From NCBI RefSeq assembly GCF_024298765.1, contig NZ_CP101212.1: DNA of 64,000 nt; one strand, given 5' to 3'. The position numbers and the translations under genes were made by a program. Each line of letters begins with the position of its first letter. The stretch's first letter is position 1. This stretch comes from Escherichia coli (GTDB lineage Bacteria > Pseudomonadota > Gammaproteobacteria > Enterobacterales > Enterobacteriaceae). The notes beneath the pieces were generated by a model. The model worked only from the letters and a program-made list of their open reading frames with translations, made no database searches and was not told the origin of the DNA. Positions 2,004 through 46,715 of the stretch are shown piece by piece.

Positions 2004-2685
2004 GAGTTATTTTTCACGTAGCACACGCACTGTTTATGGATACAGGTATTCTGACCTGAACGCCCGGATCCTTCCACGACAATAAATCGCAGCGCGCGGA
2101 TCCTTTTGTTTGATTATCACGCATTATTGCGGGTAAAACCAAATACATAAAGGCGCATTTTGCCGCTGGGATCCCGTCTTAAGCCAGTCATGGTGCGGGC
2201 TGAGGGCTGGTTTACCGTTTTTGGGAGAATTGGGGTAATGCCAGGACAGGCAGAAACGGAAAAAAAATCCTGCAGACGCCCTTAAAAGACAACTGAAAAT
2301 TTCTGACTCCATATTCCTCTGGTTTCAGACTGCTTAATCACATCATCAACCTGATACATAATAAACAGATTCTGTTCACAGAATGAACAATTAAGTAAAT
2401 AGTTAGATTATGCGAAAAAGTACAGATATTTCTCACCATCGTTATTGAATAATATGTCTTCACACAAACAATATTAATATTTTGAGTGTAAGCCCTGACT
2501 CAAAGAAAGAAATGTCTGTTTTCGGAATCAAAAATATATAGTTATCAAAATACATTAATTTCAAATTTGAAATTAATGTAAAACGATTTAGTAAATGTTA
2601 TGACATTATAAATCTACTCCTCCATGTTTAGAGGAGTATTTGCAGACTGGACGCTCTTATATAGTTACTTACCTTTATACATATT

Positions 2686-3594
2686 CTAACATAAGCATTT
2701 ACCAACCTTACAGGGAACAGACCATAGTAGTTTATATTTCCATTCAGGTCTGAATGCACCGATAGAATATATCATCTTTTTATTATTATCCTGACAATAC
2801 CTTCGTGCTTTATCTATATTCAGCCACATAAGGACACTTCCCGGACTTAGTTTCATACAATTCTCATCATTCAGAACTGCACCATTTGGAACGTCATAAT
2901 AAACATTACATGAGCTTTCAGATTTCAGTACTATATCAATAGCACACGGTTTATTATCCCAGAATAGCACATGGCCAAACATAAGTTCTCGTAAGTGAGA
3001 AATAAACATTAACAGATTATCATATTCGTAGCAAGGTAGGGTACCTCCAAACCGGGAATGAAAAAGTGATATATAAGAGCTGGATATTTCTTTATCGGAT
3101 AACTGGCTTATACACTTAATCTCTCCGCCATTCCTGATAAATCTCTGGATTTCATTTCGGCGAGTTTTTTCAAATTTAGGTGAAAAAGATTCCTTTATAA
3201 TACAATTTTGTTTTTTTCTGGCTATTTTCCATGTTGCATTGATAATATTTTGTTTATTTATAATTGATAATTTATTAGTTTTATCCGGAAAAAAACATCT
3301 TGCATGTGGGGAAAAAGGAATTAATACCTCATCAGATGAAAGAGGATAAGACCTTCTTGCCATTATCCCAATTTGTTTTCCATTGCACAGAAAATATGAG
3401 CCTTTGATATCACCATCTTTTTCATAGTGAAAAAAATCAAACTTCCAGTCATGATGTATCATAAAGTATGAAACAACATCCGGATGCATGTTTACACTAC
3501 CACCGTATTTTTCAAAAGTTTTTTTGTACGTTTCGAATGTAGATGGTTTCCAGGCCGTAATAATGCGCTTTATATTTTTAATTGACAAAGTCAT
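2686..3594 (-). CDS. mig-14: Mig-14 family protein (antimicrobial peptide resistance-associated)
   Basis: 302 aa AT-rich ORF directly downstream of hlyF, the arrangement known from ColV-type plasmids. Confidence 0.55.
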   Translation of the reverse strand: MTLSIKNIKRIITAWKPSTFETYKKTFEKYGGSVNMHPDVVSYFMIHHDWKFDFFHYEKDGDIKGSYFLCNGKQIGIMARRSYPLSSDEVLIPFSPHARCFFPDKTNKLSIINKQNIINATWKIARKKQNCIIKESFSPKFEKTRRNEIQRFIRNGGEIKCISQLSDKEISSSYISLFHSRFGGTLPCYEYDNLLMFISHLRELMFGHVLFWDNKPCAIDIVLKSESSCNVYYDVPNGAVLNDENCMKLSPGSVLMWLNIDKARRYCQDNNKKMIYSIGAFRPEWKYKLLWSVPCKVGKCLC

Positions 3595-3656: not shown

Positions 3657-4766
3657 TTATTTAAAATCAACTTCCATTTGTTGTTGAATTGAAAGGTGTT
3701 TTGTCGTTTCTATACAGTATTTAATATAATCAGTAAACTTTGGCGGTTTAGGCATTCCGATACTCAGTAGCTTGTCGTTACTGAAACAAACATTGAGCAT
3801 ACTGAACGCTCCATATAAACGAATGGCTTTTAACATAAGGCGTTCGTTACAGGGACCAAAAATATTTTTAAAATCATGACGGCTCATTGCCAGTATGTCA
3901 TAACTGACTTTAGTATATCTGTCTCCAACAGGATCACAGTTCAAAGCACGGGCTACAGCTTCGTCAATAGCAGAGAACGTCACACTACTTTCTTTACCTG
4001 CTGATATATGAACAATCTCACCATTAATTAACGAACTTTCAAGCAACATTAGCAATGCATCAGCACAATAATCTACAGGGATAACATCTATTTTATCATC
4101 CAGAGAGCACATAAATTTTTGCAACATTAACCCCATTCTGAATACCCAGAAAATACTGGTTGAAGGTAAGCACCCTAAACGACTGTGGCCAACAATAATT
4201 GATGGTCGGGCAACCAACAAAGGTAAATCAGGACACTGCTTACGCATCAGATATTCTATTGTTGCTTTTGAATGCGTATACTCCACTAAATGTTCACCTG
4301 TTTCTGATGAAGCAGACTCTTCCTTAACTAGCGACCCCGTATGAGGTGTACAAGACATAGCAGTACCAACATGAAGGAAGCGTTTCAGTCCTGCCACTTT
4401 TGCCATTCTTCTTGCAAAAGCAAGTGTACCTGTAACATTCACATTCCATATAAAAGGATTATTACCAAAAGAAGCTATAGCCGCACAGTTTATAACATGA
4501 GTGACTTCATCAAGACGAGGATCCATGAGAAAGGCTTCCGGATTATTTAGATCCCCAGGCAAGATGTTATCATTAGTTAATGCATGCAACCTTTCCTCAC
4601 AAACATTAAATTTACGCATATTTTCTTTAATTCTTTCCAGTCCCGCTTGTGGAGTAGGTGCTCGTACTAAAAGTAGCAAATTTATATTATTACAGTTATC
4701 CAGCAGCTTATCCAGGACCGCGCCACCAAGAAATCCTGTTGCACCTGTAAGTAATAACAATTTCAT
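3657..4766 (-). CDS. hlyF: HlyF, NAD(P)-binding SDR/epimerase-family protein
   Basis: 369 aa; N-terminal TGATGFLG Rossmann motif; position between mig-14 and ompT. Confidence 0.7.
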   Translation of the reverse strand: MKLLLLTGATGFLGGAVLDKLLDNCNNINLLLLVRAPTPQAGLERIKENMRKFNVCEERLHALTNDNILPGDLNNPEAFLMDPRLDEVTHVINCAAIASFGNNPFIWNVNVTGTLAFARRMAKVAGLKRFLHVGTAMSCTPHTGSLVKEESASSETGEHLVEYTHSKATIEYLMRKQCPDLPLLVARPSIIVGHSRLGCLPSTSIFWVFRMGLMLQKFMCSLDDKIDVIPVDYCADALLMLLESSLINGEIVHISAGKESSVTFSAIDEAVARALNCDPVGDRYTKVSYDILAMSRHDFKNIFGPCNERLMLKAIRLYGAFSMLNVCFSNDKLLSIGMPKPPKFTDYIKYCIETTKHLSIQQQMEVDFK

Positions 4767-5198: not shown

Positions 5199-6158
5199 TT
5201 AAAAATAATACTTCAGACCAGCTGTGGTCATAAAGTTATAGCTTTCAATGCCTGCACCATTTTTGGTGTGATCAGATATATTCAAATTTCTGGAGTACAG
5301 AGAAGTATCACCTTTCTTATTAGTAATACGGTTCCATGTTCCTTCGACATAAACTTTAGCTGCAGGTGTAATATAATAACCAGCATGTAGTGAGACAGAG
5401 TAATAGTTCTGATTATTTACATCGCTACGATAGGTGATCCTTTTCTCAGGGTTGTAATGCTCATCATTATCCGATGCCTTCACCCATCCGCTATATTTGA
5501 AACTCCCCCCGAACTCAAAGCTATCATACCGATAATTACCGGTTAACCCTATATAGGGCATTTTAAAGTGTTGTTTGTAGCCTATAGCTCTTTCACCATC
5601 TGGAAATGATCCCGTTTCATCCCGGAAGCCTCCCTCACTACTATAGATATAAGAGCCTCCTTTTGCTGTAAAGCTATAACGATTTTCCTGGTAACCAGCC
5701 ATAAGACCTAACTGATAGTCTGGTTGATTCAGGAGCCATCCCTTAATATTCAGGTCGAATTCATTAGCAAAATTTAGACGGGTATTCGGATGTTTACTCT
5801 CATCAGTCCAGGTTCCGGGATTGCTCGTATCCAGCCAGTCCCTGTCCACCATATTGCCTCCACGACCAGCTAATGTTGTCCACCCTGAGGCACCGACAGA
5901 TACTCTGGGTAACAGATCCCAGTTAAATGCCCCCTTGACAATTGGCGCATTACTGTATTTCCAGTCCAGCTGGCTGGCTTTGCGCCCTTTTTCTTCAGGC
6001 AGATAAACCCGTTCTTTGGCCTTGCCACTTAAAGTGCCAAAATCAATCTCCGTACTGATTTTCTCCGGTGTAAAAGAAAGCCCAGTATCAGAAGCCAGTG
6101 CAGCAAACGCTACAGGAGCTGAGAGTGCAGTAGCAAGAATCTTTAAGTACATAGACAA
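5199..6158 (-). CDS. ompT: Omptin-family outer-membrane protease (plasmid-borne OmpT)
   Basis: 319 aa with signal peptide and beta-barrel terminal F; omptin-like sequence throughout. Confidence 0.85.
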   Translation of the reverse strand: MSMYLKILATALSAPVAFAALASDTGLSFTPEKISTEIDFGTLSGKAKERVYLPEEKGRKASQLDWKYSNAPIVKGAFNWDLLPRVSVGASGWTTLAGRGGNMVDRDWLDTSNPGTWTDESKHPNTRLNFANEFDLNIKGWLLNQPDYQLGLMAGYQENRYSFTAKGGSYIYSSEGGFRDETGSFPDGERAIGYKQHFKMPYIGLTGNYRYDSFEFGGSFKYSGWVKASDNDEHYNPEKRITYRSDVNNQNYYSVSLHAGYYITPAAKVYVEGTWNRITNKKGDTSLYSRNLNISDHTKNGAGIESYNFMTTAGLKYYF

Positions 6159-7394
6159 GTTAACTCCATTCCACTCGTTTGTTTTTGATAAATATTTTTT
6201 TATTTACTCGTAGTAGTCAACTGAAAAATGCTGTTTTGTTTAACGTTTGTTTACAATGTGGCCGCATGTCGCTTTATTTATTCCCTTTTATGTCAGAATA
6301 TCAGGGGAGTCAGTCAAACCCGGTATGATTACTGCCCCGGTCATCCATGTTCCAGGAAATATCAGGGCATACAGGGTGCTGGTAACTGCGAATAAGGCCC
6401 TGGTCGGACACTTTATGCCGGGAACGTCTGTAACATGGAAACCGGTACCTTCTTCCTGGGTTTATTTTGTTAACTCTTATCTAAAGGGAGACAAAATGGC
6501 CAAATCCTGCGATTATGAAGCAATCAGGGTTTTTATTAGCGTTAATGTCGGCAAATATACCAATAACGCCATTACAGTTAATTATTCAGATAGCGTTTGT
6601 GCGACAAGGCATTACCATTCGACGAAAATAAACTCAGGTGGTTGATATCAGAAATCAACCGTGGCTCCACCTACAAAAAAAGTTGCTGGTTTATAAATCC
6701 CTCCTTTCTGATTAATAAGAAAACTAATAACATATGAGTATAATTACTTGTTCAGATAGGTTAATTATCTTCGTGATTGATATTTATTTGGTTTCAGTAA
6801 AAATGATGTTTTTATTATAAAGTTTATAAATACCAAGTCGGTGGTGTTTATTAGTGTAATGGAGGGGAGTGCGTAAATCGTTACATGTAACACTTCCTTC
6901 CAATAATACTTTATAAATCAATAAATGTATGATTACTTATTTCCTGAAATATCACATATATTGCTATATTTCTTAACGAGATATTCTTATTTTATTGATG
7001 ATTGCATCTCTTTTATTTAATGTAAAGCTTTCTTATTAATCTTCTAATGTATTGCAAAATGGTAGATGCTGAGTAATCAACAGACTTGTATGTAAAGTCA
7101 AGATTAACGTTGCTAAAGCACGCATCAATTTTCTGATAAAAGGATGTGGTTGTTTTTTTCGATAAAAAAAATTCTTGTCTAACCGCTGGTGAAATAAGAT
7201 TATTATTACCCCGGATTAATACTGAGCCTAACAATAGAATACAAAAAAAACAAAATGCTTTAAATAAGGGGAGCACTATAAGTTATCCTCTTTACTTTAT
7301 GCTTACCAACTCATTTTGTTACTTTATAACATAACTCATCTTGCGTTGTAAACAGACTCGTTTTAGTTCCATGCACCTTTTGAGATCGTGACCA

Positions 7395-7620
7395 AATAAT
7401 GGCGTTAGTGATGTTCTTCCAGTGTCATATGGTTAAGTGGTTGATATGGCGTTCACTGTTATATTCTGACAACCAGTTTGCCGCCAGTTCCCGCTTTTCA
7501 TCCAGCGTTCTGAACAGACAAAAACCGAGTATTTTTGTTCGGTATGTCCGGTTAAAACTCTCGATAAAAGCGTTCTGCGCCAACTTACCTGATTGGGTAA
7601 TCTCCAGTTTTACTACATGT
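7395..7620 (-). pseudogene. IS3-family transposase orfB 3' fragment
   Basis: Minus-strand translation gives ...GKLAQNAFIESFNRTYR...WLSEYNSERH..., the conserved IS3-family C-terminus; no N-terminal part present. Confidence 0.4.
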
Positions 7621-9105: not shown

Positions 9106-11737
<2,632 letters not shown>

Positions 11738-12668: not shown

Positions 12669-13877
12669 TTGTTATGGAAAACATGGACAATGTTAATGAA
12701 ATATATTTCTCACCGCGCCATCATTTGTACCTTGACACTGTTGATCATTATTATCACCGTTTTGTTCACCTTTCTGAGAAGCTCTGATGTGCCAGAATAT
12801 ATTACTGCCCCGGTGCGCAAAGGCGATATAGAAAATTCTGTTCTGGCGACAGGCCGTATTGATGCAATTGAACGGGTAAACGTAGGGGCACAGGTATCAG
12901 GGCAATTAAAATCACTGAAAGTGAAACAGGGCGACCATGTGACTAAAGGGCAGTTGATTGCCGAAATTGACGACCTACCTCAGTGTAACGATTTGCGTAA
13001 TGCCGAAGCTGCACTCAACGAAGTGAAAGCAGAACTTCAATCCAAGCAGGCGCTCCTGAAACAGGCTGAACTGCGTTTTAAACGCCAGCTCCGGATGCTA
13101 AGAGAAAATGCCAGCTCACACGAAGATTTTGAGTCTGCGGAGGCAATGCTTGCGACCACTCGCGCTGAATTACATTCTCTGAATGCCAAACTGGTCCAGG
13201 CACAGATAGAAGTAGATAAGAAAAAGCTTGCCCTTGAATATACGCGAGTCGTAGCGCCAATGGATGGAATTGTTATTGCCATTGTCACTCAGCAAGGGCA
13301 AACCGTTAACTCAAACCAGAGTGCCCCAACAATTATTAAACTCGCTCGTCTGGATGTCATGACCATTAAAGCACAGATCTCCGAGGCTGATATAACCCGT
13401 ATTTCTGTGGGGCAAAAAGCCCGCTTCTCTATCTTCTCCGAACCGGACAAGCACTACAGCGCAACACTGCGTGCCGTTGAACTGGCACCAGAATCGGTAA
13501 TGAAAGATGACTCTCTCGCCAGCAACACTTCAGCATCAGGCTCCGGAACTTCAAATGCGTCCGTTTATTACAATGCTCTATTCGATGTGCCTAACCCAGA
13601 AAATCGACTTCGTATTGCCATGACTGCTCAGGTTACCCTGATTACTGATGAAGCCCAAAATACACTGCTGGTACCCATTCAGGCAGTGCACAGAAATGAG
13701 GGGAAGAAGCAACAGGTCCTGGTGCTGGCAGCAGATGGCAGGCTGGAACCCCGGAATGTGAAAACTGGTATCACGAACAGCGTGGATATTCAGATCCTCG
13801 AAGGTTTAAATGTCGGAGAAAATGTCGTGCTGTCGCTGCCGGATAAGAAAGAGCCCGAAGAAAGGATTATGCTGTGA
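12669..13877 (+). CDS. etsA: Membrane fusion (HlyD/MacA-like) periplasmic adaptor of the Ets efflux/secretion system
   Basis: 402 aa with N-terminal TM, coiled coil; overlaps start of the next gene. Confidence 0.8.
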   Translation: MLWKTWTMLMKYISHRAIICTLTLLIIIITVLFTFLRSSDVPEYITAPVRKGDIENSVLATGRIDAIERVNVGAQVSGQLKSLKVKQGDHVTKGQLIAEIDDLPQCNDLRNAEAALNEVKAELQSKQALLKQAELRFKRQLRMLRENASSHEDFESAEAMLATTRAELHSLNAKLVQAQIEVDKKKLALEYTRVVAPMDGIVIAIVTQQGQTVNSNQSAPTIIKLARLDVMTIKAQISEADITRISVGQKARFSIFSEPDKHYSATLRAVELAPESVMKDDSLASNTSASGSGTSNASVYYNALFDVPNPENRLRIAMTAQVTLITDEAQNTLLVPIQAVHRNEGKKQQVLVLAADGRLEPRNVKTGITNSVDIQILEGLNVGENVVLSLPDKKEPEERIML

Positions 13878-15814
13878 AAAAACTTATTGAGTTAAAAGGG
13901 GTTAGCCGAACTTATGGCAACGGAGATCAAACGCGGACCGTCCTGAAAAATGTCGATTTGACAATCGTTGCTGGAGAAATGGTGGCAATCATTGGAGCCT
14001 CTGGCTCAGGCAAATCAACCTTAATGAACATAATGGGTTGCCTTGACGTACCCAATAGAGGTGATTACTACATCGACGGACAAAATGCCGCCTGTCTTTC
14101 ACCCGATGAGCTGGCTAGAGTGCGCCGGGAACACATTGGCTTTATATTCCAGCGCTACCATTTGATACCTGATCTTAGCGCACTTGGTAACGTGGAGATC
14201 CCGGCCATTTACGCCAACAGCGAACGCGACAGCCGTCGGCAACGTGCAACGGCGTTGCTGGGCAGACTGGGACTGGAAGGACGTGAGCATCATAAACCTT
14301 GCGAACTTTCAGGCGGTCAGCAGCAACGCGTCAGTATTGCCCGAGCACTGATCAACGGTGGAAAGATAATTTTGGCGGATGAGCCAACTGGTGCTCTGGA
14401 TTCGCAATCCGGGCAAGAAGTGTTAGCCATTCTGAATGAACTTAATCGACGTGGTCATACTGTAGTAATGGTGACCCACGATATGAAGGTCGCCCGGCAC
14501 GCAAAGCGAATCATTGAGCTGTGTGATGGCGAAATCATCGCTGATAGTGGAGGTTGCGTATCTGCGACGGAAACACTACCAAAAACCAACAGAATCCGGC
14601 AAAGCTATTGGAAAACACTGCTCGATCGAACGCGTGAATCGATGCAAATGGCGCTAAAAGCGATGAAGACGCATCGCTTACGCACCACGCTTACCATGAT
14701 CGGGATTGTTTTTGGTATCGCCTCCGTTGTCACTGTTGTGGCATTGGGTGAAGGAGCCAGGCAAGAAACACTGGAAGAGATTAAAAGTCTGGGGACAAAC
14801 GTGGTCAGCATTTATCCCGGGCAGGATTTGTTCGATGACAGCATTGAGAGTATTAGAACATTGGTACCTGCTGACGCAAATGCACTGGCGAAGCAAGGGT
14901 TTATCGATAGCGTCAGCCCGGAAGTTAGCGCTTCAGACAACATTCGTTTTCTGGGTAAATCTGCGATAGCGTCCATTAACGGCGTTGGGCGGGAACATTT
15001 CCGGGTAAAAGGTATTGAGTTGTTGCAAGGGACTACTTTTAGAGACGATCGCAACGCTCTACAGGAAGTTATTATCGATGAGAATACTCGTAAGGCCATT
15101 TTCGACAACACAGGGTTACAGGCTCTGGGGCAAATAGTCTTTCTTGGTTCTGTACCAGCACGAGTGGTTGGCATCGCTAAAAGTAACAACCGTAGTGATG
15201 CATCAAATCGCATTACTGTGTGGATGCCTTACAGCACGGTGATGTACCGTATTGTGGGTAAACCAGTTCTGACCGGTATTAGCGTCAGGCTAAAAGACAA
15301 TGTGGATAACGAGGCTGCAATCAGCGCTATCTCCCAACTATTAACCCGGCGTCACGGCATAAAAGACTTCCAGCTTTATAACTTTGAACAAATAAGAAAG
15401 TCTATCGAACACACCTCAATGACCTTCAGTATTTTAATTCTTATGGTCGCATGTATCTCACTAATGATCGGCAGTATCGGGGTGATGAACATCATGTTGA
15501 TTTCTGTAACGGAACGAACTCATGAAATTGGCGTACGAATGGCGGTTGGCGCGAGACGCAGCGACATTATGCAACAGTTTATTATTGAGGCCGTATTGGT
15601 TTGCCTGATTGGTGGCGCACTCGGTATTGCACTGTCGTATATCACAGGTGCGCTCTTTAACGCTCTGGCGGACGGGATATTCGCAGCTATATATTCGTGG
15701 CAGGCTGCTGTTGCTGCATTTTTTTGCTCAACCTTAATTGGCATAATCTTCGGGTATCTCCCAGCCCGCAAGGCAGCAAGGATGGACCCGGTTATTTCAC
15801 TGGCCAGCGAATAA
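13874..15814 (+). CDS. etsB: MacB-type ABC transporter, ATPase plus permease
   Basis: 646 aa; Walker A GASGSGKST, ABC signature LSGGQQQR, C-terminal FtsX-like permease. Confidence 0.8.
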   Translation: MKKLIELKGVSRTYGNGDQTRTVLKNVDLTIVAGEMVAIIGASGSGKSTLMNIMGCLDVPNRGDYYIDGQNAACLSPDELARVRREHIGFIFQRYHLIPDLSALGNVEIPAIYANSERDSRRQRATALLGRLGLEGREHHKPCELSGGQQQRVSIARALINGGKIILADEPTGALDSQSGQEVLAILNELNRRGHTVVMVTHDMKVARHAKRIIELCDGEIIADSGGCVSATETLPKTNRIRQSYWKTLLDRTRESMQMALKAMKTHRLRTTLTMIGIVFGIASVVTVVALGEGARQETLEEIKSLGTNVVSIYPGQDLFDDSIESIRTLVPADANALAKQGFIDSVSPEVSASDNIRFLGKSAIASINGVGREHFRVKGIELLQGTTFRDDRNALQEVIIDENTRKAIFDNTGLQALGQIVFLGSVPARVVGIAKSNNRSDASNRITVWMPYSTVMYRIVGKPVLTGISVRLKDNVDNEAAISAISQLLTRRHGIKDFQLYNFEQIRKSIEHTSMTFSILILMVACISLMIGSIGVMNIMLISVTERTHEIGVRMAVGARRSDIMQQFIIEAVLVCLIGGALGIALSYITGALFNALADGIFAAIYSWQAAVAAFFCSTLIGIIFGYLPARKAARMDPVISLASE

Positions 15815-15817
15815 TAT

Positions 15818-17188
15818 ATGAAAATTTTATCATCGTTGACTTTATGCCTTATCACCGCACTCTGTTCAGGTTGCACAAACGTGCTGAAAAGTGACTATCG
15901 CGCTCCCGAAGTGAACTATCCCATCAACTGGACCAAGGGCGATGTGGACGGAAATACATCCCCGTTTGACTGGGAAGAATTTAACGATCCTAATCTCGAT
16001 AACTGGCTTCACCTGGTGATGACAAGTAATAACGACATAGCTATAGCTGCACTGCGGATACATCGGGCGCAGCTGGATGCGGAAAGAACAGGTATCACCA
16101 ATACTCCTGCACTAAAGGCGGCACTGAGTATGGACGGAAAAAAACAGCTGAATAACTCGTCCGGCTGGGCAAAAAGCGGTTCTGCCAGCCTTGGCACCAG
16201 CTATGAGCTGGATCTCTGGGGAAAAATTGCCCGTCAGCGTGATGTTGCTGAGTGGGCAGTCCATGCCAGTGAAGAAGATTTTCGCTCCGCGCGCCTGATG
16301 CTGCTTTCAGAGGCCAGCAATAATTACTGGCGTATCGGTTTTGTAAATCAACAAATTACCACCCTCCAGCAGAGTATTGACTATGCAAAAGAGACGCTGC
16401 GTCTGGCCGAGGTTCGCTATCGTGCAGGAAATATCTCGTCGCTGGATGTGATTGACGCGCAGCAAAACCTGCTCACGCAAGAGAACCAGCTTACAGGGCT
16501 ACAACGAGAACATTCACAGCTACTCAATCAGCAGGCCGTTTTGCTCGGCACCGTGCCCGGTTGCCAGATAGTCGAGCCCACAACGCTGCCAAAAGGAAGC
16601 CTGCCTAAGGTCAATGCGAATATTCCTGCCAGCATACTGATGCGCCGGCCTGACATAAGTGCTAAAGAGTGGCAGTTGCGTGAGGCGCTAGCTACGGTTG
16701 ATATCAAGCGTAGCGAATATTACCCCACCTTCAACCTGACAGGCGCTTTGGGTACCAGCAGCGCTTCGCTACTGGCATTACTGCATAATCCGGTCGGTTC
16801 CGTAGGCGCTAACCTGACGCTACCGTTCCTGGAGTGGCGACAGCGGGACATAGAGGTAAAAATTGCCCGTAACGATTACGAACAGCGAGTGCTGGAGTTT
16901 AAACAGCTACTTTATAAGGCAATGAGCAGTATAGAGGACGCGCTTTCATTTCGTAACCAGTTGCTGCTTCAGGAGACAAGACTCAGGGAAGAACTGGAAC
17001 TTGCACGTAAGTCAGAGTGGTTAAACGAAGTTCGTTACCGGCATGGTGCAGTACGTATTTCATTCTGGCTTGATGCTCAGGAAAAACGTCGTCAGGCGGA
17101 GCTGCGACTGGATGAAAACCGCTTCAATCAGTTGCAGAATCTAGCAAAAATTTATCTTGAGTTTGGCGGGGCATCAACCTTTCCTTAA
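15818..17188 (+). CDS. etsC: TolC/NodT-family outer-membrane efflux lipoprotein
   Basis: 456 aa; lipobox LCSGC; third gene of the tripartite set. Confidence 0.8.
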   Translation: MKILSSLTLCLITALCSGCTNVLKSDYRAPEVNYPINWTKGDVDGNTSPFDWEEFNDPNLDNWLHLVMTSNNDIAIAALRIHRAQLDAERTGITNTPALKAALSMDGKKQLNNSSGWAKSGSASLGTSYELDLWGKIARQRDVAEWAVHASEEDFRSARLMLLSEASNNYWRIGFVNQQITTLQQSIDYAKETLRLAEVRYRAGNISSLDVIDAQQNLLTQENQLTGLQREHSQLLNQQAVLLGTVPGCQIVEPTTLPKGSLPKVNANIPASILMRRPDISAKEWQLREALATVDIKRSEYYPTFNLTGALGTSSASLLALLHNPVGSVGANLTLPFLEWRQRDIEVKIARNDYEQRVLEFKQLLYKAMSSIEDALSFRNQLLLQETRLREELELARKSEWLNEVRYRHGAVRISFWLDAQEKRRQAELRLDENRFNQLQNLAKIYLEFGGASTFP

Positions 17189-17984: not shown

Positions 17985-18926
17985 TCACTTAATGTTCTTC
18001 TCGCATTTTAAGAGAAATAGTAAATTTGTAGCAGTAAGATGAAGCATATAGCTTACCAATTCTTCCGGAACCTCTTTAATATCAGCTCCTTGCCCATGAC
18101 CTGCATTTTTGTTTCTGATGGTTGGAATTCCTGTTTCCAGCATTGTTTTCAGACTTGTGAACTGGCTTTGTAAATATGCCGGAATTAAATTTTGACTTAA
18201 ACAGCTATTTATTAGTTTTGATGCTGTATCATTAGGACTATATTTCCAGTTATTCTTATCATGTATTGCTTTCATTATACTTTCAAATGATTTCAGACAA
18301 TCATTTAGACATTCTTTATAACGCTTATGCCTGTAATGCTCATGCGCAGCAAGGAATTCATCATTGGCGCCTTCAAACAAGGGTTCTCCACTTAAAAGAA
18401 TCAGGGTTGGCTTTACGACATCAGCATGAATCAATTGAGAGTCTATCCTTATTATCTCTTCAGATTCAAACTGATAACCAACCCCATGTTCTCTAAACCT
18501 TTCATTTAGTTCAATAACTGCATCTCCAGGACTTTGACTTGTTATGTCTTTGAATTCATAATGGTTTTTCGCAACGTGGCTCACTAGTATCTGGAAGCAT
18601 ATTTCTATGAAATCTAGGCATTTCTCTGTATTTCTCTCTTTAAGGAAAAAGTCGACAAGAGCGTCAAAGTCATTCTTTGCAAATTCCTTCAAAGAAAAAA
18701 CACCATATTCCTTAGAAAGTATCTCATGGATATATGCATATACTTTGTCAGCTTCATTTCTATACGATGTGTAGCGTTCATTAGAAGAGGGGAAGCCGAT
18801 AGAATCAGTTATTATTTTAATAATTTGCACCCTGAGTGCATGTGGAATATTGTTATATTGATATACGTCATTTACTTCGCCACGAATTTTTCTTTGTCTC
18901 TTAGAATAAATATTAATAATTGCCAT
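17985..18926 (-). CDS. HEPN-domain protein, AbiJ-like (putative single-gene abortive-infection/defence protein)
   Basis: 313 aa, visibly AT-rich; C-terminal R-x5-H motif (RNKNAGH) of HEPN type; family assignment is from memory, not a search. Confidence 0.4.
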   Translation of the reverse strand: MAIINIYSKRQRKIRGEVNDVYQYNNIPHALRVQIIKIITDSIGFPSSNERYTSYRNEADKVYAYIHEILSKEYGVFSLKEFAKNDFDALVDFFLKERNTEKCLDFIEICFQILVSHVAKNHYEFKDITSQSPGDAVIELNERFREHGVGYQFESEEIIRIDSQLIHADVVKPTLILLSGEPLFEGANDEFLAAHEHYRHKRYKECLNDCLKSFESIMKAIHDKNNWKYSPNDTASKLINSCLSQNLIPAYLQSQFTSLKTMLETGIPTIRNKNAGHGQGADIKEVPEELVSYMLHLTATNLLFLLKCEKNIK

Positions 18927-19160: not shown

Positions 19161-20550
19161 TCACCTTTTACCAAAGATGGCCTCAGAGCTTCCCTGAAGC
19201 TTTATCATGGCTTCAAGTAGGTCATCTTCGTTCAGTGAGCGCTGAGATTTGTTGATGCTAGGGGCGTGCCGTCTGCGGGAAGGCTCATCACCAGAACAAG
19301 GTAACGATTGTGAGCGATTATTGTCCCGTTTTCTCTGGACCTGACGGGCAACATCCAACACATGGCCAAGTCTCTTGTTATCTACAATGGCGACGGGATC
19401 AACCTCAGAAAGCCGGTCATAGGTGGAGTAGGGCAGCAGCACGCCATTTAGTCGCAGCTCCTTATGTCCGTCAGGATAATGCCAGACATCAATATACTTG
19501 CCGATGGCTCTTCGACTGTACTCGTTGTCCTCAATCAGATAGAGCATTTTATCGTATTGTACAGTCAGATTTTTTGATACCCGGCGAGGCTCTCGCTAGG
19601 TAAATTCTGCATCAAGGTCATCGTCTAATGCCAGCGGCCGGTGCGCGTTAAAATCATGCAAGGGTTCTTTGGCAAAGCGCCGGTTATAATCCTTCTGCAA
19701 ATGCATTGGCCGCTTCTATTGTACAGATCCCCTTAAGCCTGAGCTCCTTAACGAGTCGGTCCTGAAGTGTCAAATGAGCACGTTCAACGCGGCCTTTTGC
19801 CTGGCTGGTTTCAGCACACAAAGGAGTAATATTAAGGCAGCGCATGGCCCTGGCAAACTGGGTTTCGCCGGGGCCGGTGGTGGCGTGCTTATTATTGACT
19901 CTGAATACGCTGGCTTTATCGCTGTAGAGGATCATCGGTTTACCGTATTTCTCGATATAGCCACGTGTAGCTTCAAAATAGGTAAATGTGGACTCAGATT
20001 TCACAAACAGCAGGTGCATCAGGCGACTGGTGGCATCGTCAACATAGACCAGGGCAGAACAGGGTCGCCCCCGGTTTTCAAACCAGTGGTGGTCGCAGCC
20101 ATCAATTTGTATCAGCTCGCCAGTACAAGGACGCCGGTAACGAGGCTGATGAATTTTCGGTGCGCGTTGTCTGCGGGGAATCCAGAGTCCGGCCTTTATC
20201 ATGAGACGTCGGATGGTTTCCTTTCCAAGGACCAGACCGTGAACTTCCTCCAGCTTTTCCCGCGCTAGCGTGGGGCCAAAATCACGGTAGTGCTCCCGGA
20301 TTATACTGAGTGCCTGATCTGTCAGTGACGCTGGCAACAGACGGTTACCAGTGCGGCCACGACTCTGGTTGTTCATGCCAAGCGGCCCATACTGGCGATA
20401 ACGTTTGAGCAGACGGCTGCAATGACGTGGCGTGATGCCCAGCATTTCGGCAGCCTGTCCAGGACGGATATTGCGATCGATGACATCCTGAAGGATTTTG
20501 AGGCGATTGATTTCTTTCACGGTGAACATTCCGGCGTCATTTATAGCCAT
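19161..20550 (-). pseudogene. DDE (rve-core) transposase with N-terminal HTH, split into two ORFs
   Basis: ORFs 19684..20550 (HTH plus DGCDHHW...YSDKASVF...KGRVER core) and 19161..19547 (C-terminus) separated by a frame break. Confidence 0.5.
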
Positions 20551-20736
20551 AGAAAACTCCTCATCAGGAAAAAGTGAGTCGTTGTCTAGACATAGGGATC
20601 TGAGAAACTATAGCCTGGACATTCCTAATGAGCCACAAATAGACATTAGCATTGAGCCTCTACAATGTTTGTGCGCACAATCTATCTTATGTTAAATAAC
20701 ATTGAATATTAACTTACTTCATGAAGCTTACTGCTT

Positions 20737-21054
20737 CTATTTCCACTTCTTTTTCTTATTAATCGCTCCCCTAATCCACGCATTCATCTGCTCTACAGGC
20801 TCTAAAATATTTTTTCTGAGTACTGAGCACAAACTGCTCCATAAAAAACAGACCACAAGTTTGGGCATGATACTGATGTAGTCACGTTTTATTGTTTTCA
20901 TGAAGCTCTCTGCTATTCCATTACTCACCGGACTCCGCACCGCCGTGTTCTTCGATTTAAGTCCCAACATCCGAGCGAACTGGCGTGTTTCATTAACCCG
21001 GTAGTCAGAGTCAGCGGTCGAAAGACCTCCCAGGTAGCTACTCTGCATACCCAC
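20737..21054 (-). pseudogene. IS2-related orfB 3' fragment
   Basis: [43 protein letters not shown] matches the IS2 InsD region seen intact at 28684..29408. Confidence 0.5.
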
Positions 21055-21186
21055 TATAATGCAACTATTCTCGTGACGTGTGTTTCAGCTCTCCCCCGGC
21101 TATGATACGAGATGGTATGGAGAGCCCTTCTGGGGCCACTGCCTGCACCAGATGCAACAGGAAGCCTGATATGAATGCAATTTCTG

Positions 21187-22380
21187 TCAGGACAGGCGGG
21201 TAACTTTCTGTGGCCATGGATCAGGGAATACTCCACCCGACATCCACCACTGAATTTCTTCTTCAGTCAACAAGCAAAGGGATAAGGCATGTGTAAAATC
21301 ATTAACTTCAGTGGCATTGCCAATGATAGTCAACTGACAGCAGCGATCGCCAAATCGCCCAGAGGCTGTGTCGATGTGTCGCTGTAGCGCTGAACGTTCT
21401 TCACGAGTTAAATTATTGTCAGTATGTTCCAGTACTCCAGCTTTCCAGTAGCCAATGAGCGCCAGACTGATGCTTCCTGCTGACTGATTCCAGAGCAGGG
21501 CAAGATCATCTCTCCCGGGGAGCCAAAAAAAACCTTTACTGCGATAAACGCCCATGCCCATAAAGCGGTGACAGGTATCCCATAATCTTTGCGGATGGAA
21601 TGGCCTGTCGTCCCTGATGACGCGCCATATAAGTTCCTCATTGTTGCACGGAGTATCCATGTTTCCTACAAGTGCTTCCAGTTCACTGATGAGTAACTCA
21701 ACACGGTCAAAATTGTAGTCCGGGATCGCCAGTAATGTGCTCAGTTCAATATTTCCCCATGATACCGCGAGCACATCCACGGAGGGGTTAAGTGGGTGTA
21801 TGGCTTTTGCCACAGCGGAGATAATGTCAAAGGGCAGGCGGTCATTTCTGGTCAGCAGCAGCCTGTTGCAGAACATGATTTGCTCGGCCAGCAAATTCTC
21901 CAGGCCGCGTTTGTTATGCCGGAGATTTTCCTGAAGAGTGGGGATCAGTTTTTTCCCATCATTGTAATCTTCATGGAGCATGACAGTATCAACGAGTGTT
22001 AAAAACGCCTTCAGGCGTACACGTGAATGGCGACGCAGGTATTTGACCAGAGGAAGCGGATGACTGCTTCCGGAGGTTTCAATCAGCATCACATCCGGCT
22101 TGTTGTGATCAAGCAGGTGGTTAATTGCGAGATCCATCTTTTTGAGGCCTGCGGGGCTGCTGATGCTGTCTGCGGTGATACTTACGAAATTATTGTCTTT
22201 TGCATCTACAATATCTGTGTTGGCGATCAGCACGCCGTCCACATCCAGTTCGCTCATGTCATTGACTATGACAGAGACTGAAAGCTGTTTTTCGTGTGCC
22301 TGTATGAGCAGGTTTTTCAGCAGAGTGGTTTTCCCTGCGCCGAGGAAGCCATTGAGAATGATGACAGATGTTGTTTCCAT
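21187..22380 (-). CDS. CobW/COG0523 G3E-family P-loop GTPase (putative metallochaperone), divergent
   Basis: GFLGAGKTTLL Walker A, IETSG motif, CobW-like C-terminal domain; likely start at METTSV (22380) rather than 22494. Confidence 0.7.
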   Translation of the reverse strand: METTSVIILNGFLGAGKTTLLKNLLIQAHEKQLSVSVIVNDMSELDVDGVLIANTDIVDAKDNNFVSITADSISSPAGLKKMDLAINHLLDHNKPDVMLIETSGSSHPLPLVKYLRRHSRVRLKAFLTLVDTVMLHEDYNDGKKLIPTLQENLRHNKRGLENLLAEQIMFCNRLLLTRNDRLPFDIISAVAKAIHPLNPSVDVLAVSWGNIELSTLLAIPDYNFDRVELLISELEALVGNMDTPCNNEELIWRVIRDDRPFHPQRLWDTCHRFMGMGVYRSKGFFWLPGRDDLALLWNQSAGSISLALIGYWKAGVLEHTDNNLTREERSALQRHIDTASGRFGDRCCQLTIIGNATEVNDFTHALSLCLLTEEEIQWWMSGGVFPDPWPQKVTRLS

Positions 22381-23035
22381 ATCAGCAGTACACCAGTTAG
22401 TTAGCGAGGAAGGCGCTTGGTGGTACAAAGAGCATCCGGATTGAATCGCATAACGTCGACGGGAGTTGTTGTCGTTTTTCCTGTGAGGTCTCAACCTGCC
22501 ACAGAACGCACCGGATTTATTGGTATTTAGTCTCCATCAGCATAATTATCACCATTTTTATCTCCGGGGGAAGATTTGTTCTGAACAGGAGTGGGAGGTG
22601 TGACCTCCTGAAAGTAATTACAGATTGCTAGTTGTTGTATTTTTATTCGAATATGTCTCTTCGTATCAGTGATAGCACCTAGATAAAGTATATTCCGGGA
22701 GCGTTATCTGTTCTAGATATCAGAGAGTCAGTCATTTGTAAAAAAGAGAGCTGCATCATTCTATTTTTCCTGTCTATTCACCCTGTTGTCGTATCTAAAA
22801 GACATCCGTTCCGAGGATGTCGGGCACCCGTTCTGTACTAAGATACATAGCTTTTGGGTCTGCACTATTTGGAACCGACAGAAGTCTGTCTGTGATATCC
22901 GCATTTTTCTGTGTGCGATATATTCCGAAAAACTTCAAACCACTTAAAAGAGGTGTTTCCGGAGGATAAGTTCGACCAGGGAATAGTGTTTCCTGGTAAG
23001 TGTGGCGGAGCCAGTTCACCAGGAGTATCTTTCTT

Positions 23036-23072
23036 GGCACTGTTGCAAAGTTAGCGATGAGGCAGCCTTTTG
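23036..23072. mobile_element. 37-bp IS26 end fragment abutting the complete IS26
   Basis: ggcactgttgcaaagttagcgatgaggcagcctttt is the inverted IS26 end sequence. Confidence 0.55.
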
Positions 23073-23892
23073 GGCACTGTTGCAAATAGTCGGTGGTGAT
23101 AAACTTATCATCCCCTTTTGCTGATGGAGCTGCACATGAACCCATTCAAAGGCCGGCATTTTCAGCGTGACATCATTCTGTGGGCCGTACGCTGGTACTG
23201 CAAATACGGCATCAGTTACCGTGAGCTGCAGGAGATGCTGGCTGAACGCGGAGTGAATGTCGATCACTCCACGATTTACCGCTGGGTTCAGCGTTATGCG
23301 CCTGAAATGGAAAAACGGCTGCGCTGGTACTGGCGTAACCCTTCCGATCTTTGCCCGTGGCACATGGATGAAACCTACGTGAAGGTCAATGGCCGCTGGG
23401 CGTATCTGTACCGGGCCGTCGACAGCCGGGGCCGCACTGTCGATTTTTATCTCTCCTCCCGTCGTAACAGCAAAGCTGCATACCGGTTTCTGGGTAAAAT
23501 CCTCAACAACGTGAAGAAGTGGCAGATCCCGCGATTCATCAACACGGATAAAGCGCCCGCCTATGGTCGCGCGCTTGCTCTGCTCAAACGCGAAGGCCGG
23601 TGCCCGTCTGACGTTGAACACCGACAGATTAAGTACCGGAACAACGTGATTGAATGCGATCATGGCAAACTGAAACGGATAATCGGCGCCACGCTGGGAT
23701 TTAAATCCATGAAGACGGCTTACGCCACCATCAAAGGTATTGAGGTGATGCGTGCACTACGCAAAGGCCAGGCCTCAGCATTTTATTATGGTGATCCCCT
23801 GGGCGAAATGCGCCTGGTAAGCAGAGTTTTTGAAATGTAAGGCCTTTGAATAAGACAAAAGGCTGCCTCATCGCTAACTTTGCAACAGTGCC
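23073..23892 (+). mobile_element. IS26 (820 bp) with 14-bp terminal repeats GGCACTGTTGCAAA
   Basis: Both terminal repeats and full transposase read directly. Confidence 0.9.
23136..23840 (+). CDS. tnpA: IS26 transposase
   Basis: 234 aa from MNPFKGRHFQRDIILWAV...; identical protein encoded at 27322..28026. Confidence 0.9.
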   Translation: MNPFKGRHFQRDIILWAVRWYCKYGISYRELQEMLAERGVNVDHSTIYRWVQRYAPEMEKRLRWYWRNPSDLCPWHMDETYVKVNGRWAYLYRAVDSRGRTVDFYLSSRRNSKAAYRFLGKILNNVKKWQIPRFINTDKAPAYGRALALLKREGRCPSDVEHRQIKYRNNVIECDHGKLKRIIGATLGFKSMKTAYATIKGIEVMRALRKGQASAFYYGDPLGEMRLVSRVFEM

Positions 23893-32091: not shown

Positions 32092-32950
32092 TTGCCCATC
32101 GATATGGGGAGCTCATCTGCACTGTTCATTAATATACTTCTGGGCTCCCTACAGTTGTTTTTGCATAGTGATAAGCCTCTCTCTGAGGGAGGAAATAATC
32201 CTGTTCAGCGATGTCTGCCAGTCGGGGGGGCTGCATTATCCACGCCCGAGGCGGTGGTGGCTTCACGCGGGGATGGGCAGATTGATCTGATATGCAACCG
32301 ACGACGACCAGCGGCAACATCATCACGCAGAGCTTCATTTTCAGATTTGGGCCACCTTTTGATTTCTCGTTTAACTTTTGCAGTCACCAGACTGTGATTT
32401 ATTTTAACAAATCAATAGCTTTCATAAAATTCTCGAAGCTGAAAGCTTAACTGAACCAACCAGCCTGGCTGGTGTTTTCTAAAGACAAAAAGGCCATCAG
32501 CAAAACACTGATAGTCTGAATCACCTTTATCAATCATGTATGAAGAAAATATGCGCAATTAGTTGACAGTGATTATCATTTTCATTAAAAAGAGCGCGTA
32601 GCATTCTTATTTCATGAGGAAATTTACCCGCCAACAACCTGAGTAGCGAAAGCTGTTCATCCCCAATATTTTTGCTGGCGGGTTCTTTTTTCTACTGTCC
32701 TCCTCCCCAGAGGAAGCATTCCCATTAATCATTACTGGCGAGGAGGCAAGAGAAAAAGTCGGTTCTTTGTCCCTAAATAACAGCATCATTTCAGTCCATG
32801 CAAAATCTGATTTACCAGCTCACATAATAACCTGATGATACACAGTGTAAGTTCACAGAGATATTGCAATTGCCTCCGGATAAGTAAGGGGAGATTGCAC
32901 TATGCAAATGCAGCACCTGAGGTTGGCTATCCTAAGCAGCCGATTATGCG

Positions 32951-34770: not shown

Positions 34771-34795
34771 GATATTGGTAATTATTATCATTAGC
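34771..34795. promoter_or_regulatory. Fur-box-like sequence upstream of iroB
   Basis: gatattggtaattattatcattagc; rather far (about 440 bp) from the iroB ATG. Confidence 0.3.
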
Positions 34796-35236
34796 ATTTG
34801 TGTCTGTGTTGTTTCTGGTAAGGCTGAAAGGGAACAAACATCGCCTGTACAACGGCGTTTTTACTTACAGACCAGCGAAGGCGAGACTATCAGGATGATG
34901 CATCGTGTGTCTAAGAAATCACGGTTCTTTCCAGATTCGTTGTTCGGTCTAACACTGCACAAATGCGTCAGAACATCCCGGCGTAGCTGTCCGACGCCAT
35001 TTGGGCTGTTCAACAGGACAATGGCGCGTAAGCGTTAATGGAAGTGGGGATACGGAGTTCCCTGTTCACCTGTGTATGTCACGGAAAAGTCTCTGACTGA
35101 GCTGTCCATAACGCTGGTGAAGCACAAATGGCGCAGCATCTGGTAAAGCAGGTTTAACGAAAAGTCGTGTCCTGCTGCTGGCATATGAGTGCGTCGACTG
35201 CCTGATTTAGATCGTCAAGCGGAGAGGGATTTTCTC

Positions 35237-36352
35237 ATGCGTATTTTGTTTGTAGGCCCGCCTCTCTATGGGCTGTTGTATCCTGTGCTGTCTCTGGCGC
35301 AGGCATTTCGCGTTAACGGTCATGAAGTGCTGATCGCCAGTGGAGGACAATTCGCACAAAAAGCGGCAGAGGCCGGGTTGGTGGTGTTTGACGCCGCACC
35401 CGGTCTGGATTCCGAAGCTGGTTACCGCCACCATGAGGCACAGCGGAAAAAAAGTAATATCGGAACCCAAATGGGCAACTTCTCATTCTTCAGCGAAGAA
35501 ATGGCCGACCATCTGGTGGAGTTTGCCGGACACTGGCGGCCTGACCTCATCATCTACCCTCCGCTCGGAGTCATCGGGCCGCTGATTGCCGCCAAATATG
35601 ATATACCGGTCGTGATGCAAACCGTAGGCTTCGGCCATACCCCCTGGCATATCAAGGGTGTAACGCGTTCGCTCACGGACGCCTATCGTCGCCACAATGT
35701 GGGGGCCACACCACGTGATATGGCCTGGATCGACGTAACACCGCCGAGTATGAGCATTCTGGAAAACGACGGTGAACCCATTATTCCGATGCAGTACGTC
35801 CCGTATAACGGTGGCGCGGTGTGGGAACCATGGTGGGAGAGAAGGCCCGAGCGTAAACGTCTGCTGGTGAGTCTCGGCACTGTCAAACCGATGGTTGACG
35901 GCCTTGATCTAATCGCCTGGGTTATGGATTCTGCCAGTGAGGTCGATGCCGAGATCATCCTGCATATTTCAGCCAATGCGCGGTCCGATTTGCGCTCGCT
36001 GCCGTCAAATGTTCGCCTGGTTGACTGGATACCCATGGGTGTCTTCCTCAACGGCGCAGATGGTTTCATTCATCATGGCGGAGCAGGCAATACCCTGACA
36101 GCGCTACACGCTGGTATTCCACAAATCGTCTTCGGCCAGGGAGCCGATCGCCCGGTAAATGCCCGCGTTGTTGCCGAACGCGGCTGCGGGATTATCCCTG
36201 GCGACGTCGGCCTGTCGAGTAACATGATCAATGCTTTCCTCAACAATCGCTCACTTCGCAAAGCCTCTGAAGAGGTAGCAGCGGAAATGGCGGCGCAACC
36301 CTGCCCAGGTGAAGTGGCGAAAAGCCTGATCACAATGGTACAGAAAGGGTAA
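35237..36352 (+). CDS. iroB: Enterobactin C-glucosyltransferase
   Basis: 371 aa from MRILFVGPPLYG...; GT1-family glycosyltransferase; first gene of iro cluster. Confidence 0.85.
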   Translation: MRILFVGPPLYGLLYPVLSLAQAFRVNGHEVLIASGGQFAQKAAEAGLVVFDAAPGLDSEAGYRHHEAQRKKSNIGTQMGNFSFFSEEMADHLVEFAGHWRPDLIIYPPLGVIGPLIAAKYDIPVVMQTVGFGHTPWHIKGVTRSLTDAYRRHNVGATPRDMAWIDVTPPSMSILENDGEPIIPMQYVPYNGGAVWEPWWERRPERKRLLVSLGTVKPMVDGLDLIAWVMDSASEVDAEIILHISANARSDLRSLPSNVRLVDWIPMGVFLNGADGFIHHGGAGNTLTALHAGIPQIVFGQGADRPVNARVVAERGCGIIPGDVGLSSNMINAFLNNRSLRKASEEVAAEMAAQPCPGEVAKSLITMVQKG

Positions 36353-46696: not shown

Positions 46697-46715
46697 GATA
46701 ATGATAATCATTTAC
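46697..46715. promoter_or_regulatory. Near-consensus Fur box upstream of the DAHP synthase gene
   Basis: gataatgataatcatttac against consensus GATAATGATAATCATTATC; about 50 bp upstream of the start. Confidence 0.5.

Follow-up and report, generated by a model that had tools for sequence, protein, structure and literature searches.

Can a CobW-type GTPase work without the cysteine motif that defines its family, or is a gene that has lost the motif simply a relic? The question is posed by a minus-strand gene in the 64,000-nucleotide (nt) stretch of Escherichia coli DNA analysed here (contig NZ_CP101212.1 of assembly GCF_024298765.1; hereafter the window), which is a ColV-type IncF virulence plasmid. 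The gene (21187..22380) encodes WP_000450494.1, a 397-amino-acid (aa) GTPase of the G3E family COG0523 that lacks the CxCC motif. COG0523 proteins are a key puzzle in the study of bacterial metal homeostasis and of nutritional immunity, and current models assume an invariant CxCC zinc site. The ColV gene encodes an intact protein that belongs to a separate, ZigA-like clade of COG0523 GTPases. As a ColV passenger the gene is already well annotated; what is new is a large, zinc-regulon-linked COG0523 variant without the defining metal site.

Serines at the metal site

The open reading frame (ORF) list of the window gives 21187..22494 on the minus strand, the coordinates adopted by the initial annotation. 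That ORF exists, but its TTG start at 22494 adds 38 N-terminal codons that no homologue or annotation uses: the ATG at 22380 is the start in all homologues and in the RefSeq annotation, and DNA and protein similarity to relatives begins there. The in-frame 5' extension (22381..22494, minus strand) is probably not translated. The 1194-nt coding sequence, which ends with the stop codon at 21187-21189, follows the ORF list, the Pfam matches, homologues aligned from M1 and identical copies in RefSeq and PLSDB, where it is named 'GTP-binding protein' or 'CobW family GTP-binding protein'.

Domain and fold searches bore out the initial annotation's view of the product as a CobW-type G3E GTPase. Pfam matched a cobW G domain (PF02492; 89.6 bits, E 2.4e-25) and a CobW_C domain (PF07683; 54.8 bits, E 8.8e-15), and an AlphaFold2 model built from the family alignment (predicted local distance difference test score 79, predicted TM-score 0.78) had YjiA as its best PDB match (Foldseek 2e-14), followed by HypB and UreG. 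The hidden Markov model classification within COG0523 that had been suggested was run with NCBIfam and left the protein below the cut-offs of the ZigA, CobW, PRK11537 and MRF models. The ZigA model NF038288 matched end to end, residues 6-377 against model positions 3-376 of 390, at 200.2 bits (cut-off 600); TIGR02475 (CobW) reached 80.2 bits (cut-off 332), NF008578 (PRK11537 'GTPase') 48 bits (cut-off 361) and the MRF model 67 bits (cut-off 375).

We then located the missing motif in a MAFFT alignment of 168 sequences, comprising 128 clade members and 40 canonical COG0523 proteins that include YjiA and Klebsiella ZigA. Plasmid residues D71-S72-I73-S74-S75 (22156..22170, minus strand, read 22170-22156 as GAC AGC ATC AGC AGC) replace the canonical metal site, and the same columns read G-C-I-C-C in all 40 canonical sequences. 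With S72-I-S74-S75 in register with canonical C-x-C-C, the earlier claim that CxCC is absent stands. An alternative register, in which phmmer set NNFVSI against NGCICC of YjiA, was rejected; the MAFFT register keeps the Ile of C-I-C-C and involves a single one-residue insertion. S74 is kept in 119 and S75 in 117 of the 128 clade members, and the first Cys position holds S, N, V or T. The alignment indicates that the three-cysteine CxCC zinc site became (S/N/V)-x-S-S in this clade. Codon usage at these positions is nearly uniform: Ser74 and Ser75 are encoded by AGC or AGT at 153 of 154 sites across 77 loci, and an AGY Ser codon lies one transversion from a TGY Cys codon. Because AGY occurs at all but one site, the pattern fits a single origin from the TGY codons of a CxCC ancestor, followed by constraint on serine.

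The clade is large. In a HMMER search of 1.84 billion representatives, full-length matches of at least about 165 bits were all without CxCC; NGCICC first reappeared at ~150 bits (28-31% identity) and dominated below, where a few lower-scoring full-length matches also lacked CxCC. Species-representative genomes hold 473 clade loci, spread over Enterobacterales, Vibrio, Pseudoalteromonas, Planctomycetota, Bacteroidota and others. Judged from these sequences, the missing cysteines mark out a whole clade, both large and strongly conserved, rather than an oddity of one gene, and the clade is under strong purifying selection.

The cysteines aside, the clade keeps the motifs of a GTPase: the P-loop GFLGAGKTT, switch I NDMSELDVDG, Walker B ETSG, TKxD and C-terminal RxKG. 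On the plasmid (all minus strand), the G1/Walker A P-loop G11-F-L-G-A-G-K-T-T19 (22324..22350) does not vary among the 128 clade members or the canonical proteins. The G3/Walker B stretch E101-T-S-G, followed by S-S-H107 (22060..22080), has E101 and G104 invariant; H107 is shared by 122 of the 128 clade members, and Glu occupies the position in 39 of the 40 canonical proteins. In the C-terminal domain, R280-S-K-G283 (21532..21543) is the RxKG motif, recently identified as the arginine finger of ZigA and MigC (bioRxiv 10.64898/2026.03.03.709369), with R280 in 127 and K282 and G283 in all 128 clade members (canonical R and K 40/40, G 39/40). The base-recognition motif G4, T177-R-N-D (21841..21852), has the consensus TKxD in the clade and NKxD in canonical proteins; the G4 of YjiA is TKTD. 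K178 is found in 126 of 128 clade members and 40 of 40 canonical proteins, with K->R in the other two (2/128), and K178R is the plasmid allele's only departure at the 80 columns that are at least 95% conserved in the clade. By these measures the plasmid gene is an intact clade member, not a decaying one. Codon 178 (window 21847-21849) is Arg in the ColV allele, which could affect guanine binding, and a Klebsiella variicola copy (P0024) reads TRAD at G4.

Further substitutions set the clade apart: N46->D in 120 of 128 members, G71->D/C/H/E in about 90% and I105->S. Together with the change at E107, those at N46, G71 and I105 cluster around the old metal site.

Two outlying database entries concern the reach of the clade. 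A 6.9-kb contig labelled 'MAG: Lachnospiraceae bacterium' (MAG, metagenome-assembled genome; SFGN01000100.1) encodes at 2243-3433 a protein 100% identical to the ColV GTPase; on this protein-level comparison the copy is probably a binning contaminant. In a Joint Genome Institute metagenome (locus L091, 657-3039), a distant clade member (39% identity) has the motif GTLSS, and 115 nt beyond it comes a canonical COG0523 protein of 357 aa with CLCC, another Cys-less/Cys-bearing tandem pair, outside the Gammaproteobacteria-type loci.

Zinc-linked neighbourhoods and a candidate mechanism

We surveyed gene neighbourhoods in 82 loci of homologues, scoring as a predicted Zur box any match to TGTTATAATATAACA with at most 3 mismatches within 250 nt upstream, a consensus that applies to Gammaproteobacteria only. 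Such a box preceded the gene in 27 of 82 loci, against ~2% of background windows, and was perfect in Pluralibacter and on a Pseudomonas graminis plasmid. In 24 loci the next gene downstream, in the same orientation, was dksA2. A canonical CxCC (ZigA-type) COG0523 gene occurred within 8 kb, likewise in 24 loci, and stood in tandem upstream in Pantoea and Erwinia; folE2 was a neighbour in 8 loci and a gamma-carbonic-anhydrase-like gene in 6. At least one zinc-linked feature was present in 49 of the 82 loci, among them ~44 of the roughly 50 gammaproteobacterial ones.

In Klebsiella pneumoniae and Kosakonia, a 67-70% identical homologue is part of a classic zinc-starvation island. It combines a divergently transcribed, very divergent Fur-family gene with dksA2, folE2, gamma-carbonic-anhydrase-like and QueD-like genes, and also carries CysRS and ThrRS (cysteinyl- and threonyl-tRNA synthetase) paralogues, ZnuA/ZnuB-like genes and a FeoB-like GTPase gene. 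The Klebsiella island contains a ZigA equivalog (702 bits, cut-off 600) that coexists with the SxSS paralogue. Because true ZigA shares this island, the plasmid protein is a paralogue of ZigA and not its orthologue.

Kosakonia and 'Martelella' supply the nearest non-identical proteins, both 70% identical to the plasmid protein. The latter comes from a scaffold assigned to an alphaproteobacterium (Martelella alba NZ_SZPQ01000059.1, locus L009) whose island has dksA2, folE2, a Fur-family regulator and a canonical COG0523 gene, the same zinc-linked features as the Klebsiella and Kosakonia loci; it reflects either horizontal transfer or assembly contamination. This locus and seven others (L003, L004, L010-L012, L015, L025) share a conserved intergenic promoter-like element, TTGAAT-N17-TATTAT, ~100 nt upstream of the GTPase gene (7903-8001 in L004). 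In the Klebsiella, Kosakonia, Tatumella, Superficieibacter and Shimwellia islands the element is followed by a TGCAA-N5-TTGCA palindrome, with no Zur box there. Next to it, a divergently transcribed gene encodes a 150-aa Fur-family protein whose score never exceeds 35 bits with any of the Fur, Zur or PerR models. Protein and palindrome may be an uncharacterised metal regulator and its operator.

Recurrent Zur boxes, dksA2 and the ZigA paralogue near homologues, with folE2 and further zinc-independent paralogues in Klebsiella and Kosakonia, tie the family to zinc starvation, and on this genomic evidence we place it in zinc-starvation regulons, not in iron or cobalamin pathways. The initial annotation had presented the gene as an orphan and had named a canonical CxCC together with a conserved partner context in homologues as the observations that would speak against its reading. 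CxCC is absent; the neighbour survey that it proposed revealed a recurrent zinc-linked context.

Some records nonetheless name the product 'cobalamin biosynthesis protein CobW', and it shares the Pfam domains of that protein. An authentic CobW, the cobalt chaperone for cobalamin synthesis, is an exceedingly improbable identity, effectively ruled out by the TIGR02475 score, by the lack of a CxCC to bind Co(II) and by the upstream region, where Rfam at a permissive threshold returned no riboswitch or other match over 20500-23200; there is no B12 riboswitch there because nothing in that span matched. The gene neighbours inspected across the 82 loci included no cob gene, and the families that recur among them are zinc-related.

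Taking the analysis as a whole, we consider it fairly probable that the plasmid protein is a cysteine-free ('zinc-sparing') counterpart or paralogue of ZigA, with a GTPase cycle that runs free of gating by zinc on thiolates. In ZigA and MigC, zinc has been described as gating GTP hydrolysis (bioRxiv 10.64898/2026.03.03.709369); here such gating would be absent for want of zinc at CxCC, and the protein would cycle GTP and engage a client or partner without zinc held on thiolates. More tentatively, and in our view less likely than not, the clade as a whole might work without a thiolate zinc site in one of two ways: by regulating or partnering canonical ZigA in a zinc-free form, or as a chaperone for another metal through a new site at D46, D/C/H71 and H107.

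A different explanation, which we regard as unlikely, holds that the metal site was remodelled. D46, D/C/H71, H107 and perhaps S74/S75 would then form a harder, N/O-type site in a GTP-dependent chaperone for Fe2+, Mn2+ or Co2+, and this chaperone would serve the adjacent cambialistic, zinc-independent paralogues (FolE2, gamma-carbonic anhydrase and PyrC2-type enzymes). The three correlated switches at positions 46, 71 and 107 do flank the old site, folE2 and the gamma-carbonic-anhydrase-like gene are among the neighbours, and Haas 2009 proposes other metals for such paralogues. Serine, however, is a poor ligand for transition metals, the folE2 and carbonic anhydrase genes occur in a minority of loci while many loci are solo, and the proximity of D46, D71, S74, S75 and H107 is presumed.

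Several observations weigh against the zinc-sparing proposal. The old Cys positions carry conserved Ser, not random residues, which hints at a positive role that simple loss of the site does not explain. The correlated changes N46->D, G71->D/C/H/E and E107->H could mean that the site was remodelled and not abolished. No zinc-linked feature was found in 33 of the 82 loci, mostly from Planctomycetota and Bacteroidota, with a Zur consensus that is gammaproteobacterial only. Finally, K178R in G4 might change nucleotide binding by the plasmid allele.

The ColV copy and its plasmid setting

The gene is present, at least 99% identical, on 561 PLSDB plasmids (530 from Escherichia, 17 from Salmonella, 9 from Klebsiella and 5 from Shigella) and, among 5426 complete E. 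coli genomes, in 643, with 657 of its 662 places there plasmid-borne. Of 648 E. coli records, 636 have the gene at full length. A few truncated copies are known from the searches (P0010, P0035, P0100, H55 and H114). The gene has IS26 or IS3 upstream and transposase fragments downstream.

In the window, the initial annotation's picture of a gene alone between insertion sequence (IS) elements proved accurate. Upstream lies IS26 (23036..23855, plus strand, ends approximate; DDE_Tnp_IS240 transposase at 23118-23840), which cuts off the ancestral ColV upstream region, ColV homology stopping at 23035; from 23036, IS26 comes with an aadA/dfrA integron, and the iro genes lie further on. Downstream lies minus-strand IS debris (19161..21054), made up of a broken helix-turn-helix (HTH)/integrase element at 19161-20550, with Pfam HTH_28/HTH_23 on 19684-20550, and an rve_3 fragment at 20737-21054 (weak, E 2e-4); the RefSeq equivalent is a partial pseudogene. 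No zinc-island partner was found in the window by tblastn: with 14 Klebsiella island proteins as queries against the window and pAPEC-1, the GTPase was the only match.

Between the gene and IS26, a 655-nt non-coding stretch (22381..23035, minus strand) always accompanies the gene. BLAST confines it to the same 561 plasmids and therefore did not identify a donor genome; nucleotide similarity to chromosomal loci is confined to the coding sequence, from its start codon to its stop. The stretch has a terminator-like hairpin at 22821-22801. The check for Zur and Fur sites that had been recommended found neither in 22381-22800: across the 420 nt upstream, even the best Zur-like 15-mer differs from the box at 5 positions, no Fur box occurs within 3 mismatches, and the Klebsiella-type operator is also absent. 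A simple sigma-70 scan of 20900-23100 gave no promoter-like site. Expression of the ColV copy, if any, is probably not zinc-regulated. Of such a zinc island, ColV plasmids carry this single gene, bracketed by IS elements and cut off from its Zur or Fur-family operator and from its partner genes.

Candidate metal-regulator sites do occur elsewhere in the window. Two Zur-box-like 15-mers with 2 mismatches each, at 7317-7331 (TGTTATAAAGTAACA) and 7457-7471 (TGTCAGAATATAACA), fall within the AT-rich non-coding DNA and IS fragments that separate ompT from an IS3 element; no plausible gene follows them, and they are probably chance matches. Fur-box matches with 2-3 mismatches fall at 32565-32583, 34771-34795 and 46697-46715 (0.02 expected by chance), none of them near the GTPase gene. 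The pair at 34771-34795 is ~400 nt upstream of an ORF at 35189-36352, which we take to be the start of the iro genes from the gene order on related plasmids.

This setting raises the possibility that the ColV copy is a functionless hitch-hiker, a zinc-island fragment captured by IS elements and kept by recent clonal spread of the plasmid backbone. The native operator, promoter and partner genes are absent, IS elements stand on both sides, some copies are truncated, and the remaining identity of at least 99% among copies implies little time for decay. Against this, the gene is full-length in nearly all E. coli records despite dense IS traffic, deviates once in 80 conserved positions, and has a counterpart in an independent allele of the clade on Klebsiella virulence plasmids. 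We rate the hitch-hiker account as rather unlikely, and it is compatible with either biochemical model.

Two kilobases from the GTPase gene, a minus-strand AbiJ-like gene (17985-18926; AbiJ_NTD4 and DUF7014, annotated as STM4504/CBY_0614 family) matches the PADLOC candidate defence family PDC-S32 (4e-9) and may represent a gene of abortive-infection type that ColV plasmids conserve. This DUF7014 neighbour, and an 'ABC-three component system' that adjoins the gene on one plasmid, would favour a role for the GTPase as the NTPase component of an anti-phage defence system. Such a role is highly improbable. We effectively ruled it out because PADLOC gives the GTPase P-loop-level matches only (E ~1e-3), and defence neighbours, unlike the zinc-regulon features, are not conserved among homologues.

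The same side of the window also carries hlyF (3657-4766), ompT (5199-6158) and etsABC (12669-17188). Between the IS3 element and etsABC is inserted a group II intron ORF on the minus strand (9538-11061), which encodes a 507-aa reverse transcriptase with RVT_1 and group II intron maturase domains.

Comparison with known systems

Family surveys have been built on the motif that this clade lacks. Haas 2009 chose COG0523 sequences by the presence of CXCC and states that all members have it, the Giedroc laboratory treats CxCC as invariant and family-defining, and the Blaby-Haas laboratory removed sequences without CxCC from its alignments; filters of this kind would leave the SxSS clade out. We found no description of a CxCC-less COG0523 clade in the literature searched, whose coverage stopped short of the family-wide network of Edmonds 2021 (PMC8360895, 10.1093/mtomcs/mfab046), and nothing relevant on ColV with cobW or on the protein accession. 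A Zur-linked serine clade offers a natural separation-of-function variant, in which the roles of the GTPase and C-terminal domains can be seen without thiolate-bound zinc. If the tentative reading of the whole clade given above is true, COG0523 function would not be synonymous with CxCC-mediated zinc transfer.

The clade has reached both major virulence-plasmid families of Enterobacteriaceae. The 'cobW' of pLVPK-like Klebsiella plasmids is 67.7% identical to the ColV protein, belongs to the same SxSS clade and is found by tblastn on ~690 plasmids, beside iucABCD-iutA and rmpA. As on K. pneumoniae plasmid CP052232.1 (10517-12200), the SxSS-clade gene accompanies its Fur-family repressor, with iucABCD-iutA within 6 kb and rmpA within 11 kb. 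The Klebsiella plasmid copy keeps the divergent Fur-family regulator and operator, whereas the ColV copy has neither; with ~67% identity between them, the two alleles are separate, independent acquisitions. Haas 2009 noted that pLVPK, a virulence plasmid of Klebsiella, carries a Zur-regulated cluster, and Turton 2019 lists 'cobW' as a marker of Klebsiella virulence plasmids, ascribing it to cobalamin synthesis. In practical terms, one allele resides on ColV plasmids in ~12% of complete E. coli genomes and another on most hypervirulent Klebsiella plasmids, where it is carried as a 'cobW' virulence marker wrongly linked to cobalamin.

ZigA, the Zur-regulated zinc metallochaperone (A1S_3411 in A. 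baumannii, PA5535 in P. aeruginosa), has the same two-domain architecture as the plasmid protein. The two share switch I NDMSE, the ExxG Walker B, the RPFHP..R signature of the linker and C-terminal domain and the RxKG finger, and homologues of the plasmid gene lie under predicted Zur boxes next to dksA2, as PA5535 does in Pseudomonas. They differ in score (200 bits against the 600-bit cut-off), in sequence (28-31% identity), in SxSS for CxCC and in H for E107.

The chromosomal E. coli COG0523 proteins YjiA and YeiR also pair a G3E domain with CobW_C, and YjiA is the best match of solved structure to the plasmid protein by sequence (1.7e-9) as well as by fold. The metal ligands of YjiA are reportedly E37, C66 and C67, in the CxCC region, a finding attributed to Sydor in 2013 and echoed in the title of PDB entry 4IXN; the plasmid protein has Ser at the positions equivalent to C66 and C67. 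Other Zur-regulated relatives, M. tuberculosis Rv0106 and M. smegmatis Mrf, have imperfect canonical motifs, but these two have lost GTPase loops, whereas the SxSS clade keeps all of them and loses only the cysteines.

A parallel in kind is with DksA2 and the C-minus forms of ribosomal proteins L31 and L36, which are Zur-controlled paralogues of Cys-ligated zinc proteins without the Cys ligands; the clade resembles them in its lost cysteines and predicted Zur control, and is encoded beside DksA2 itself. The parallel ends with what is given up: DksA2, L31 and L36 lose a structural zinc site, whereas the site lost by the clade is the one proposed to hold a chaperone's cargo and to regulate it.

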